Assembly: GCA_050287085.1 (NCBI GenBank)
Contig: JBNKBE010000006.1
Coordinates: 74,381 to 138,380, forward strand
Source of the DNA: Polyangiaceae bacterium
Lineage (GTDB): Bacteria; Myxococcota_A; Polyangia; Polyangiales; Polyangiaceae
Length of the DNA stretch: 64,000 bases
Reading direction: 5' to 3'
This document shows, in pieces, positions 5,517 to 49,945 of this stretch (positions within the stretch are counted from its first letter, which is position 1; every line of letters begins with the position of its first letter). A program made the translations under genes and the position numbers. Under the pieces are notes generated by a model, which worked only from the letters and a program-made list of their open reading frames with translations, did not search any database and had not been told where the DNA came from.

Positions 5517-7340
5517 ATGTCAGCGAACACAACAGAAACCACCCCGGAATCGCAGCTCGCTCAAGGGGCGCAGGCCGTTCCCGAAGCGCAGGCCGTTCCC
5601 GAAGCGCAGGCCGTCCCCGAGGCGCAGGCTGTTCCCGAAGCGCAAGCCGTACCGGGTTCACCCAGCGGCGAAGCGCAGCCCGCAGCCCTTTCAAGAGCTG
5701 AAGGCGAGGCTCCCAGCGCGGCCCCCATCTCGGACGATGCGGCCCCAGCGCCCGGCCCACTTGAGGCTGCCTCCAGCCCGGTCGCTACTGCCGAGCCAGG
5801 TGCCGGGACAACACCCGATCCGGATGCGGACGCTGAGCCAGGGACCCATGCGCCGAGCGAAGCCAGCGCCGAGGCCACAAGCGCCGACGGTGAACCGAAG
5901 AAGAAGCGGCGACGACGCAAGAAGAAGAAGGGCGCTCCCGAGACGGACGCTCCTGCCACCGAGCGGGCGCCGTTTCACGTTGGAGAAGAGGTCTTCGGAC
6001 GGGTCACAGCGGTGTTGCCGGAGGCGATCATGGTGGATCTGTCCGGCAAAGCGCTGGGCATCTTCGACCGCGAAGAGATGGAGGCCGATGATCTGGTTCC
6101 CAACGAGGGTGACCGCTTCCTAGCGCGCGTCCATCACACCAGCAACCGCGGTGGCCTAACGGTATTAACCCGCAAGCCGCTACGCGAAGAGGACTCGCGC
6201 AAAGCCGTGGAAGAGGCGGCCAAGAGCGGTCAGACCGTCAGGGGACTGGTCACCGGCGTAATCAAGGGCGGCGTGGACGTGGACTTGTCGGGCCTACGCG
6301 CCTTCGCCCCCGCCTCGGGCATGGATTTGCATCCGCAAAATGCGAACTTTGCAGCGCTCGTTGGAACGCGGCTCGAGTTCAAAGTCACTCAATTCGACAA
6401 TAGCGGGCGCGACGTTGTCGTCACGCGACGCCCCATGCTGGAAGCCGAGGCCCACGAGCGTCGCAAGAAGGCGCTCGAGATCCTGCAAGAGGGTAGCGTC
6501 ATGCCCGGCACGGTTCGCACCGTGGTCGAATGGGGTGTCTTCGTTGCCCTTCCAGAAGCAGAAAACCTGGAGGGCCTGGTGCACGCCAGTGAAGCCTCCC
6601 ACGACCCTCGCGCCAAGCTAGCTGACTTGTTCAAACCCGGGGACAAGATCGAAGTCAAGATCAACAAGATCGACGACAAGGGCAAGATCTGGCTCAGCCG
6701 CAAAGCACTGATCGCCGACCCTTGGAAAGAAGCCAAGGAGAAGTACCCTTCCGGGGCTCGCTTCTCGACCAAGATCACCCGCGTTGAAGCGTTCGGCGCA
6801 TTCTGCCAGCTTGATGGCATCGAAGGACTCATTCACGTCTCGGACCTCAGCCCCCAGCGCGTGGCCCACGCCAATGAGGTGGTGAAGCCCGGGGACGAAC
6901 TCGAAGTCGTGGTTCACCAATTCGACCTCCGCAACCACAAGGTGGCGCTGCACCCGGCGCTCACCGGAGCCCACGCTGACGAAGCGCCGCAGAAAGTCAC
7001 TAAGAACGCTAGCGTCAAGGTTGAGGTGCTCAAGGCTGAAGGGGCCGGCGTTCAGGTGCGGATCAAGGGTGCGACCGGACGCGCTGCGCGAGGGTTCATC
7101 CCGGCGGGGCAAACAGGCACCCAGCGCGGTACCGACCTTCGCAAGCACTTCAAAGTCGGCGAGGAGCTTGAAGTGGCCGTCATCGACATCGATCCACGAC
7201 GGGGCGAACCCAAGTTGAGTATCCGCCGCTTCCACGAAAACGAGGAGCGCAGCGCCCACCGCGAATACCGGAAGCAACTCGCCGCCGAAGGCGGATTCGG
7301 TACGCTTGGAGATCTCCTGCGCAAGAGCCTGAGTCACTAA
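5517..7340 (+). CDS. Ribosomal protein S1-like RNA-binding protein (about five S1 domains) with a long low-complexity N-terminus; possibly a paralog rather than the main rpsA
   Basis: Repeated S1 motifs (VTGVIKGG, EWGVFV..EGLVHASE, AFGAF..EGLIHVSDLS) and C-terminal GFGTLGDLL. Confidence 0.88.
   Translation: MSANTTETTPESQLAQGAQAVPEAQAVPEAQAVPEAQAVPEAQAVPGSPSGEAQPAALSRAEGEAPSAAPISDDAAPAPGPLEAASSPVATAEPGAGTTPDPDADAEPGTHAPSEASAEATSADGEPKKKRRRRKKKKGAPETDAPATERAPFHVGEEVFGRVTAVLPEAIMVDLSGKALGIFDREEMEADDLVPNEGDRFLARVHHTSNRGGLTVLTRKPLREEDSRKAVEEAAKSGQTVRGLVTGVIKGGVDVDLSGLRAFAPASGMDLHPQNANFAALVGTRLEFKVTQFDNSGRDVVVTRRPMLEAEAHERRKKALEILQEGSVMPGTVRTVVEWGVFVALPEAENLEGLVHASEASHDPRAKLADLFKPGDKIEVKINKIDDKGKIWLSRKALIADPWKEAKEKYPSGARFSTKITRVEAFGAFCQLDGIEGLIHVSDLSPQRVAHANEVVKPGDELEVVVHQFDLRNHKVALHPALTGAHADEAPQKVTKNASVKVEVLKAEGAGVQVRIKGATGRAARGFIPAGQTGTQRGTDLRKHFKVGEELEVAVIDIDPRRGEPKLSIRRFHENEERSAHREYRKQLAAEGGFGTLGDLLRKSLSH
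5568..5654 (+). repeat. In-frame 18-bp repeat encoding (AQAVPE)x4 + AQAVP
   Basis: GCGCAGGCCGTTCCCGAA-type units with synonymous variation. Confidence 0.92.
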
Positions 7341-7424: not shown

Positions 7425-8078
7425 GTGAAGTCGCTTGCGCCCGGGGCTGCCCTAGCCGACCTTCCCCCGCCAGCCGGGGAGCGCTCAGAGGCGCTCGGAA
7501 CCAGTTCCGATGTTGCTTTGATGAGCGCAGCGAAGGCGGGGAATGCGTCGGCATTCTCTGCCCTCGTGCTTAGATATCAGCCGCGGCTCCAGCGTTTGGC
7601 GGCCAATCTCCTACGAGATGCTGCCGTTGCGGAAGACATCACCCAGGAAGTCTTCGTGCGCGCCTACCGGGCCCTCGCGCGCTTCGACGGACGCAGCCAG
7701 CCATTCACTTGGTTCTATCGCATCACCGTTAACCTGTCGCTGAACCGACTCCGCGCAGACAAGAAACGGCAGTTTGAAACACCGCTGACGGCGCCAGGGG
7801 TAGAACAGGCCTTGCTTGCGTCTAGGAGGCACGGCGCCCCGGATCAGGCCGCACAGCAGCGGCAACTGCGCACCGCGCTCGATCGCGGGCTCAACACGCT
7901 CAGCGAAACCCTAAGAACGACATTGCTCCTCGTGTTGGTGGAAGGACTATCGCACAGCGAAGCGGCAAGCGTTCTCGGTTGCCCAGAGGGCACCATCGCG
8001 TGGCGCGTGCACGAGGCGCGGCGCCAACTGCGAAGCATATTGCTCAGCGCCGGACACCTCGAAGGAGCCTCCGAATGA
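7425..8078 (+). CDS. ECF RNA polymerase sigma factor
   Basis: AEDITQEVFVRAY..FTWFYRITVN (region 2); EGLSHSEAASVLGCPEGTIAWRVHEAR (region 4). Confidence 0.92.
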   Translation: MKSLAPGAALADLPPPAGERSEALGTSSDVALMSAAKAGNASAFSALVLRYQPRLQRLAANLLRDAAVAEDITQEVFVRAYRALARFDGRSQPFTWFYRITVNLSLNRLRADKKRQFETPLTAPGVEQALLASRRHGAPDQAAQQRQLRTALDRGLNTLSETLRTTLLLVLVEGLSHSEAASVLGCPEGTIAWRVHEARRQLRSILLSAGHLEGASE

Positions 8079-9244
8079 ACCAAGAAGCGCTGCTGGCCGA
8101 GCTACTCGTCGACGACGATGCGTTGGACAACGCCGTCCGCGAGCACTTCATGCTTGGACATGCGGACAATGAATCGAAGGTTCAGTGCGCGGGCCCCGGT
8201 CATCCCTCGAGCCCTGAGCTCAGACGTCAGACCGTGTTTCGCCCCGCCTGTTGGGCACCCGAAGGTCCAATTCGTCGAATTGAGGCCAAGCTGCTCGAAG
8301 AGCGCCAAGCGTCAGTCCCGAGGGAATGCGAGGACCTGTGGCTGGCCGCCCCGCTGCCGGAACACAGCGCCGAAATGGCGGAACGCAGCGCCGAAGCCGC
8401 CCGGAATGAACATCGGGCACCCCGACGTCCTCCGGCGCATTCCGGGGTGATAGTGAAGGACAATGCGTCGCTGGCTTGGCACGCTGAAGACCCGTCGGGC
8501 GCCACTGAACGGCTCGCGTCCGCCCCCTCCGCGGCCATCACCTCGCACTGCAGAGTCCGCGCGAATGCTCCGGCGCGGCTTTCGCGGGGGGTGTATTGGA
8601 CCTGCCTTGGACTCGCCGCCGCGGCGGTGCTGTGGGTGCATCAGAGTGGTCGTCAGGCAAGCGGAGACCTCGCGGGCGCACGGCGAGCCCCTCCCCGGGA
8701 GCCGGTCGCTGCCCAAGGTCCTTCACCGCTGAAACAAGCACCGAACATGCACGGCGAGTTGAAGCCATCACGAGTGTGGCGATTTGAAGAGCTCCCCGCA
8801 GAAGGGCGTAGGCCCGTCCAGCCTCTGCCGCCAATGGCAAGTAAGAGTCGTGGCGCCACACGAGGCCCCGGATGGCCATCGAAGGCTGAGACCACGCCAA
8901 ACCTATCGCGGCCCCCAAGCACCGAGGTGCCACCACGAGTGGCGCCGCAGCCGGAGCCGCTGATCCCGGCCGCTGCCGCGCGTCAACTGCGGCTTGCCCC
9001 CTCACCGGCAGAGCTCAGCACGGCACTTGCGGTCGGCCGAATGCGGGCAACCCGCTGCGTGGCGACCGACATCGAGGTGCGGGTCGCGTTTGGAGCGGAC
9101 GGTCGCGTCACCGCTCTGGGACCGCTGGGCGCCCGGCTCGAACCCGCGGCTCAGAATTGCCTTCGGGAGGCCTTCCAGCCGGTGCGCGTTGCGCCATTTG
9201 GCGGCGAATATGCCACCCGGACCTGGATCCGTCGGCAACGGTAG
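8075..9244 (+). CDS. Single-pass membrane protein, candidate anti-sigma factor
   Basis: ATG overlaps the sigma stop (ATGA); one TM segment, Pro-rich linker, C-terminal two-Cys domain (VRVAFGADGRV). Confidence 0.6.
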   Translation: MNQEALLAELLVDDDALDNAVREHFMLGHADNESKVQCAGPGHPSSPELRRQTVFRPACWAPEGPIRRIEAKLLEERQASVPRECEDLWLAAPLPEHSAEMAERSAEAARNEHRAPRRPPAHSGVIVKDNASLAWHAEDPSGATERLASAPSAAITSHCRVRANAPARLSRGVYWTCLGLAAAAVLWVHQSGRQASGDLAGARRAPPREPVAAQGPSPLKQAPNMHGELKPSRVWRFEELPAEGRRPVQPLPPMASKSRGATRGPGWPSKAETTPNLSRPPSTEVPPRVAPQPEPLIPAAAARQLRLAPSPAELSTALAVGRMRATRCVATDIEVRVAFGADGRVTALGPLGARLEPAAQNCLREAFQPVRVAPFGGEYATRTWIRRQR

Positions 9245-9318: not shown

Positions 9319-9347
9319 TTGACATCCCCTTGGCTTTCCCTCATATT
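9319..9347 (+). promoter_or_regulatory. Sigma70-type promoter with GC-rich discriminator upstream of the small ORF and rpsT
   Basis: TTGACA (9319-9324)-17 bp-CATATT (9342-9347), then CCCGCGC. Confidence 0.65.
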
Positions 9348-9356
9348 CCCGCGCCC

Positions 9357-9455: not shown

Positions 9456-9472
9456 AGCACTCGAGGAAAACC

Positions 9473-9640
9473 ATGGTTTCTGCAACCCAACAAACCCGCC
9501 GTCGTCGTTACAATCGTGATCGTGCCCTCGCGCGGGCGCGCAAGCGTGCTTCTACCAAGGCCGGCACACCCGCCTTCCCGCTCCACCCCGAGGGTTATGA
9601 CCCCACGGCGCCGGACGCGAAACCCCAGAGCAAGAACTGA
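9473..9640 (+). CDS. Small basic protein, 55 aa (MVSATQQTRRRRYNRDRALARARKRASTKAGTPAFPLHPEGYDPTAPDAKPQSKN); not in the ORF track
   Basis: GAGGA SD-like site 5 nt before ATG; 6 of 9 Arg codons are CGT; lies between a promoter and rpsT. Confidence 0.75.
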   Translation: MVSATQQTRRRRYNRDRALARARKRASTKAGTPAFPLHPEGYDPTAPDAKPQSKN

Positions 9641-9677: not shown

Positions 9678-9941
9678 ATGGCGAATCATCCCTCCGCAGA
9701 AAAACGCAACCGTCAGCGCCTCAAGCGTACCGCACGCAACCGTGCGCACCGCTCGGAGCTGCGCAGCACTTTGAAGACCGCGCGCCTCGCCCTAGCCGGC
9801 GACGACACCGCGGAAGCAGCCACTTTGGTGGCCCAGGCGCAGCAAGCGTTGGCTCGCGCCGCGAGCAAGGGACTCATCCACCGCAACACTGCGGCGCGCG
9901 GCAAGTCACGCTTGGCCAAAGCGCTGGTCAAGGCTAGCTGA
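9678..9941 (+). CDS. rpsT: 30S ribosomal protein S20
   Basis: MANHPSAEKRNRQ..RN..RS..KGLIHRNTAARGKSRLAK. Confidence 0.97.
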   Translation: MANHPSAEKRNRQRLKRTARNRAHRSELRSTLKTARLALAGDDTAEAATLVAQAQQALARAASKGLIHRNTAARGKSRLAKALVKAS

Positions 9942-10169: not shown

Positions 10170-10206
10170 AGGGTCCCAAACGAGACCTGCGCGCTACGGG
10201 AGGCAT

Positions 10207-10256
10207 CTCCACACGGCGCCACGCCTCTCCGCACGGCGCAGCTCCGCACGGCGCAG
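10207..10256. repeat. 15-bp tandem repeat upstream of acs
   Basis: CTCCGCACGGCGCAG at 10227 and 10242; degenerate copy at 10207. Confidence 0.75.
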
Positions 10257-10361
10257 CGCCTCTCTCCGAACCACGCTCCAGTCCCGACGTGCGTCGCGAG
10301 CCCTGGGCTTCGTTTTCGGCACCGACCGGTATAGGGTCGCTGTAACGGGAGCGAAAAGTCC

Positions 10362-49861: not shown

Positions 49862-49945
49862 TGCGAAGAAGAGGACTCGAACCTCCACGCCCTTTCGGGC
49901 ACTAGAACCTGAATCTAGCGCGTCTGCCAATTCCGCCACCTTCGC
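49862..49945 (-). tRNA. tRNA-Leu (anticodon CAG); CCA not encoded
   Basis: GCGAAGG/TCTTCGC acceptor stem, GGAATTGGCAGAC D arm, CTAGA-TTCAGGT-TCTAG anticodon arm, long variable arm, GTTCGAGTC T loop. Confidence 0.97.

Follow-up and report, generated by a model that had tools for sequence, protein, structure and literature searches.

What is encoded by the short open reading frame that lies just ahead of rpsT in this Polyangiaceae genome, and could it specify, as an earlier note on the DNA had proposed, a ribosomal protein or ribosome-binding factor that has escaped recognition? The locus belongs to a stretch of 64,000 nucleotides that was analyzed as a whole (the window). Its elements, all on the forward strand, are as follows:

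9319-9324, +: -35 hexamer TTGACA of a sigma-70-type promoter, kept upstream of the gene in 113 of 131 Myxococcota homologs
9342-9347, +: -10 hexamer CATATT after a 17-nt spacer, present as CATATT or CATAGT in most rpsT-linked homologs
9348-9355, +: GC-rich discriminator CCCGCGCC, of the class seen in tRNA and rRNA promoters of the same genome
9356-9472, +: 5' leader of the 55-aa gene, its length differing widely among homologs
9463-9467, +: Shine-Dalgarno-like GAGGA, 5 nt before the ATG
9473-9640, +: ORF of 55 codons, ATG to TGA, encoding a basic protein of an unnamed family, with a predicted helix (residues 4-30), a TPxFPxH motif (32-38) and then a variable tail
9678-9941, +: rpsT, 30S ribosomal protein bS20 (PF01649, E=3e-25; TIGR00029)

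The layout described in the earlier note stands throughout. The 55-codon ORF and its GAGGA site are present, as are the TTGACA promoter with its GC-rich discriminator (9319-9355) and rpsT, identified by PF01649 and TIGR00029, which starts at 9678, 37 nt past the stop codon. The protein carries the 13 basic residues that had been counted (9 Arg and 4 Lys), with the N-terminal bias that had been described (11 of the 13 within the first 29 residues), and has a pI of 11.5. TTGACA-17-CATATT (9319-9347) is the sole promoter-like site between 9000 and 10300 (mean of 0.0 in shuffled sequences); transcription is predicted to start at about 9354, and rpsT is likely the second gene on the transcript. The leader shows no excess of structure over its shuffles (z=+1.06) and matches no Rfam family. 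The Shine-Dalgarno-like site recurs in 87 of 129 Myxococcota homologs and in 55 of 63 metagenome homologs.

Several other features of the window were recorded. A 607-aa S1-domain protein (5517-7340, +) combines N-terminal VPEAQA repeats with a KKKRRRRKKKK stretch, and two ORFs separate its gene from the small gene: 7425-8078, which we take to be an ECF-sigma-like gene, and a partner ending at 9244. The small gene is preceded by an S1-domain gene, at a distance of 151-167 nt, at two homologous loci (L002 and L020). Three short imperfect repeats with the core CACGGCGC were seen by eye at 10205-10260, between rpsT and an acetyl-CoA synthetase-like gene (10362), and a tRNA gene (49862-49945, -) is the sole Rfam match at the gathering score within the window.

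The 55-codon ORF is a real, conserved gene. Its homologs keep the start and the frame and differ mainly at third codon positions (0.17/0.14/0.57 by position), which places the ORF beyond chance; an intact short ORF with the same start position is found in all of the best 30 loci, and a search with the single protein matches 39 of 41 related genomes, its own included. The dN/dS comparison that the earlier note had called for reveals purifying selection. Ten copies from the same genus give a pN of 0.155 against a pS of 0.688 (ratio after correction 0.09; pN<pS in 45 of 45 pairs), and 32 Kofleriaceae-type copies give a ratio of 0.27 (pN<pS in 496 of 496 pairs), the pairs in both counts not being independent of one another.

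Codon usage resembles that of ribosomal-protein genes and lends a ribosomal role weak support. Scored against 22 ribosomal-protein genes of the source genome, the small gene reaches 0.072 bits per codon; in a leave-one-out comparison of those genes bL12 alone lies higher, and 55 of 3387 windows of the same length do as well as the small gene. With the Arg codons removed, 9% of genes score as high. The preference for CGT noted earlier is genuine at this locus (6 of 9 Arg codons against a genome background of 15%, P=0.0007), but it is peculiar to the source-genome copy and is no family trait, the CGT share being 17% in the small gene, and also 17% in rpsT, across 33 linked loci.

The search for conserved homologs across Myxococcota, likewise proposed at the outset, was productive. 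A profile of 28 sequences matches 155 of 301 phylum genomes, two of these matches being weak and probably due to chance; f34 (twice) and f61 (once) are later additions to the 155. The class to which the source organism belongs is complete at 59 of 59 genomes (23 of 23 in the same family, 25 of 25 in the rest of the order, 10 of 10 in the rest of the class, and the source genome), and its carriers include a genome of 1.8 Mb. Elsewhere, presence is mostly all-or-none by family, with matches in f29 (22/22), f31 (11/11), f27 (7/7) and f36 (11/13) and none in f26 (0/26), f39 (0/19) or f32 (0/9), and copy number is almost always one. Three further profiles, run against negative genomes (80 + 68, 76 and 76), returned no convincing divergent member; f34 and f61 are the only gains from the searches for divergent members, which included the relA/tatD neighborhoods of 5 genomes. 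Weak matches that lacked a start codon or lay within long frames were removed by eye. Because one f34 member escaped a profile and came to light through a sister protein, more distant members may be overlooked. By source name, the Myxococcota members come from Polyangiaceae, Kofleriaceae, Nannocystaceae and Haliangium, and they are always labeled hypothetical protein.

Metagenomes were searched with a DNA pattern that covered codons 1-24 and had AT-rich third positions. The 73 matches reduce to 63 different proteins, short and basic, and none of them falls below 31.8 bits with a Myxococcota-only profile. Their tails, which lie outside the search pattern, are of the family type in 62 of 63 cases (TPxF in 43, LF in 19). 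Organism names for two of the ten metagenome members looked up are Pseudobdellovibrio sp. and Peredibacter starrii, and the family therefore extends to Bdellovibrionota. The earlier description of a lineage-specific myxobacterial family is thus right about lineage restriction but too narrow in reaching no further than myxobacteria, while large parts of the phylum itself yielded no member. Over 129 members the median length is 53 aa and the pI at least 10.1; lengths across the family span 41-83 aa. A set of Bacteriovoracales-type members (L304, L318, L328, L331, L347, L348, L357, L358, L362 and L365) have Lys/Ala/Pro-rich tails and measure 68-83 aa; near relatives of these end at 41 aa.

AlphaFold2 predicts a single helix over residues 4-30 (pLDDT 94-98 over residues 1-30) followed by a coil tail. 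Conservation among 39 diverse members falls on M1, S3, T/S5, T/S8, R12, K/R15, a small residue at 19, G20, R23 and K24, G20 being replaced by Ala in the source-genome copy. On a helical wheel, positions 1, 5, 8, 12, 15, 19 and 23 cluster within 40 degrees. The conserved face consists of Ser/Thr, Arg/Lys and Gly, with no hydrophobic face or core. A one-faced helix of this kind would have the chemistry for packing against a nucleic-acid backbone, with its N-terminus buried. A small residue, which permits Met removal, occupies position 2 in 129 of 130 members. Tails divide into TPxF (76), ELF (38) and other types (16) among 130 members. The motifs MVS.TQQT and GTP.FP.H, which had been put forward as family signatures, are conserved within sub-families and are not family-wide (10 of 130 and 29 of 130, respectively).

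The family is new and unnamed; the kind to which it is assigned below, the lineage-restricted ribosomal protein, is known. In line with the earlier view of an unrecognized family, no characterized one emerged from Pfam, NCBIfam or the PDB. Pfam and NCBIfam gave no relevant match for any member scanned, and PDB searches by sequence, with four profiles and the single protein, gave nothing better than E=2; the best of these matches (E ~2), an isomerase and uS14, were taken as chance. Foldseek returned no match to the predicted structure, a single helix being a poor query. A literature search of openly accessible articles found no paper on the family. The nearest Atlas clusters are without a Pfam family.

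Individual ribosomal proteins were considered in turn. bL32c is among the nearest named Atlas clusters (at 0.78-0.81), and one cluster of the family bears the automatic name 'L32 family'; that name was rejected, the cluster being without a Pfam family, as was identity with bL32 itself (no PF01783 match, hhalign probability 0.17%, no Cys motif, canonical bL32 at G000:C2). hhalign probabilities for bL34 (0.08%) and bS20 (0.12%) are equally poor, and canonical copies of both are present in the source genome. A stand-in for a missing bS21, bL34 or bL32 was discarded, since the source genome has canonical copies of all three; it presumably encodes uL30, uS14 and bL36 as well. Sequence comparison with PDB chains and Pfam/NCBIfam models gave no match to bTHX, bL37, bL38 or, as far as it is represented there, CLaSP. 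bTHX and bL38 nevertheless resemble the small family in being small ribosomal proteins restricted to a lineage, and the bL38 gene reportedly sits in a ribosomal-protein operon. The traits of such proteins (small, basic, conserved and single-copy across a lineage) are all found in the small family. As a separate observation on ribosomal-protein genes in the source genome, the uL3 gene (PF00297) lies outside the S10 operon and is divergent from the bL19 gene, and the S10 operon passes straight from uS10 to uL4 (G000:C1:80482-81150 and G000:C12:188732-189692; gene names other than uL3 are our assumption).

The strongest indirect evidence on function is the promoter, and it is independent of rpsT. 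A search for TTGACA-like and (C/T)AnnnT-like hexamers spaced 16-18 nt apart within 200 nt upstream, in which C was allowed at the first -10 position after inspection of the source locus, finds a site ahead of 33 of 33 rpsT-linked copies, 51 of 66 stand-alone copies and 29 of 32 Kofleriaceae-type copies (random windows, 25 of 4165). Among all copies not linked to rpsT the count is 80 of 98, and among metagenome copies 41 of 59 against a background of 43 of 1432. A matrix derived from 49 stand-alone promoters (consensus TATAAT-CCGCCGCC) yields 155 sites in the source genome, and the small gene ranks second among them. Five of the top 12 sites are tRNA promoters, and another is that of the rRNA operon, with a 16S start motif ~430 nt downstream; overall, the matrix matches 12 of 48 tRNA/tmRNA genes, where 0.25% would be expected. 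The top 60 comprise eight tRNA genes and many sites with no identified gene, together with promoters of genes that we take from their translations to be rpsL, rplS, rpsP, rpmI and rplM, and, on the same footing, groES, groEL, prs, dksA-like and cdnL-like genes. Because the chaperonin, prs, dksA-like and cdnL-like genes share it, the promoter class marks housekeeping genes generally. The small gene thus appears to be transcribed like translation machinery, in a class not exclusive to that machinery. Promoter class and rpsT operon layout, both read from sequence only, fit co-regulation with ribosome components.

In 24 of 131 copies, at most 12 nt separate the end of the -10 box from the start codon, which implies a near-leaderless mRNA. 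Distances of 8-12 nt, mostly without a Shine-Dalgarno site, occur at L012, L013, L019, L045, L053, L054, L062 and L070 and in 16 Kofleriaceae-type loci; these predicted near-leaderless forms arise in several families. The top-scoring promoter of the class (G000:C4:10470, +) has no gene identified within ~300 nt and may serve a non-coding RNA.

The reading that we favor, at a probability of about 0.58, is that the small protein is a lineage-restricted structural ribosomal protein. Once Met1 is removed, the fixed N-terminus would be buried in an rRNA pocket, the helix would run along an rRNA groove and neutralize backbone phosphates, and the TPxF motif could act as a second anchor point, leaving the variable tail exposed. 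Synthesized at ribosome-like levels, the protein would stabilize a junction of the rRNA, a task that falls to bS22, bL37 or CLaSP in other lineages. Of the original proposal, the real, conserved, basic family, the translation-type promoter and the operon in one sub-clade are borne out, while ribosome binding stays a prediction. Counting against a ribosomal role are the lack of a sequence or fold match to solved ribosomal proteins, the capacity of basic helices to bind DNA as well, and the long Lys/Ala-rich tails of some members.

Gene neighborhoods carry evidence of both signs. The proposed rpsT operon and its synteny recur in 33 distinct loci, but they are limited to part of one family: all of these loci lie within the source organism's own family, where 12 of 24 genomes of the phylum sample show the linkage. 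The gap between the two genes ranges from -1 to 238 nt (median 18), and none of the 33 intervals contains a promoter-like site or a simple terminator. Where rpsT is unlinked, it has a TTGACA promoter of its own in four of five genomes viewed (three scored, one by eye). The linkage is probably the result of one fusion event. Outside this sub-clade the small gene stands alone, which counts against the ribosomal reading. The 142 flanking ORFs at 72 Myxococcota loci include no ribosomal-protein gene other than an S1-domain gene in 2, and beside metagenome copies none was found in 44 neighbors scanned out of 101. The Myxococcota neighbors seen are relA/spoT, truA, pheS, metG, pnp, tatD and holB. 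Among metagenome loci, metK lies downstream in one and a tRNA gene upstream in one, and two low-GC loci (L315 and L321, 21-29% GC) have a SpoU-family rRNA methylase gene on the same strand, 11-14 nt ahead of the small gene. An rpsR-rpmB link was not seen at the metagenome loci.

Such surroundings would suit a transient ribosome or RNA factor, such as an assembly chaperone or a partner of tRNA or another stable RNA, that is not permanent in mature ribosomes. A factor of this type would share the evidence from promoter class and helix chemistry, and it sits well with a mostly stand-alone gene found directly behind an rRNA methylase gene (two loci) or a tRNA gene (one locus), with relA/spoT, truA, pheS, metG or pnp adjoining in scattered loci. 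We nonetheless consider it unlikely. In 33 loci the small gene is predicted to share its transcript with bS20, an arrangement that points to a supply of about 1:1, and an rRNA-type promoter, in view of what is established on stringent control, fits growth-linked expression better than a role in hibernation.

Quite unlikely, in our estimate, is a nucleoid- or RNA-polymerase-associated protein whose basic helix would act on DNA or on the transcription machinery. The presumed cdnL-like and dksA-like genes belong to the same promoter class, and several Bdellovibrionota-type members of 68-83 aa have Lys/Ala/Pro-rich tails resembling those of histone H1-like proteins. Most members, however, have no long tail, the helix offers no hydrophobic face for a protein interface, and the gene was recruited to the rpsT operon. 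Moreover, non-specific DNA compaction needs no fixed spacing of S3, T5, T8, R12, K15, G20 and K24 across two phyla.

Phyletic distribution raises a further alternative, in which the protein is a remote homolog of bS22 or a stand-in for it that occupies the 16S h27/h44/h45 pocket in genomes lacking bS22. Across the 301 genomes, the small family occurs in 155, PF08213 (bS22) in 73 and both in 11. bS22 resembles the small family in being tiny, very basic, helical, often unannotated and patchy, and both begin with M-small-S; it differs in length (~30 aa versus 41-83 aa) and in its conserved pattern. Within the phylum it is an ORF of 29-34 aa (e.g., L137-L142); on an RpoB tree of 58 families its carriers fall in two clades only, and the remaining lineages yielded none. 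One of the two contains f36 and f61, which have both proteins. With so few clades occupied, the near-exclusion is a weak one that reflects two or three events; about 80 genomes show neither protein. The PF08213 profile matches 0 of 24 and 0 of 43 members, and hhalign against six bS22 sequences of the phylum gives 0.7% probability over 2 aligned columns. Together, these results make the bS22 alternative very improbable. bS22 is described as analogous to mS38 and eL41 (PMC10618245).

The weakest alternative, a chance ORF or a leader peptide regulating only rpsT, might be prompted by the short length of the frame and its position between promoter and rpsT in the source genome, but its probability is negligible, since purifying selection and conserved stand-alone homologs, most of them not next to rpsT, refute it.

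If the small protein is a structural ribosomal protein, as preferred here, its co-distribution with uL30 hints at a site. uL30 (rpmD) was not found in f29 (0/22), f36 (0/13), f61 (0/1, G231) or one genome of the two in f62. In each of five genomes examined (L276-L280), uL15 comes next after uS5, with no uL30 gene in the interval. G246 and G291 likewise yielded no uL30. In the uL30-lacking lineages the tail of the small protein forms one uninterrupted helix that lacks the T-P break, and in their sister lineages uL30 is kept and no member of the small family was seen. This link comprises about three independent contrasts, and it is opposed by G320, which has uL30 plus a helical tail, by G291, which has neither uL30 nor a member, and by f34, which has uL30 and a divergent tail. 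Descent by splitting from an N-terminal extension of uL30 was rejected: at all 30 loci inspected, in carriers and non-carriers of the family alike, uL30 is short and has no extension, and no fused form was found.

In other bacteria, the cleft between 5S rRNA and 23S H39-H42/H89 is filled by bL37 (Actinobacteria), by the N-terminal helical extension of Borrelia uL30 and by CLaSP in Coxiellaceae (PMC10618245; 10.1101/2025.11.08.686982). CLaSP, like the small gene, is a short ORF behind a housekeeping gene. Because these unrelated small basic peptides fill one and the same cleft, the cleft beside uL30 is a reasonable guess for the small protein as well, a site that we favor weakly and by analogy. 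The more specific proposal, a ribosomal protein of two predatory phyla that sits in the 5S/23S cleft and whose helical tail partly replaces the lost uL30 in f29, f36 and f61, is tentative and rather doubtful.

Small unannotated proteins are a recurrent find in recent ribosome structures, as exemplified by bS22 and bL38 (both Borrelia) and by CLaSP (Coxiella). The small family represents a ribosomal-protein candidate predicted ahead of any structure and spanning two phyla, and since cultured carriers that are not pathogens exist (Haliangium ochraceum and Peredibacter starrii), it is directly testable on ribosomes. The small gene would also serve as a single-copy marker that annotation mostly calls hypothetical or overlooks. 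If the link to uL30 loss is true, the family shows how a ribosome tolerates the loss of a core protein.
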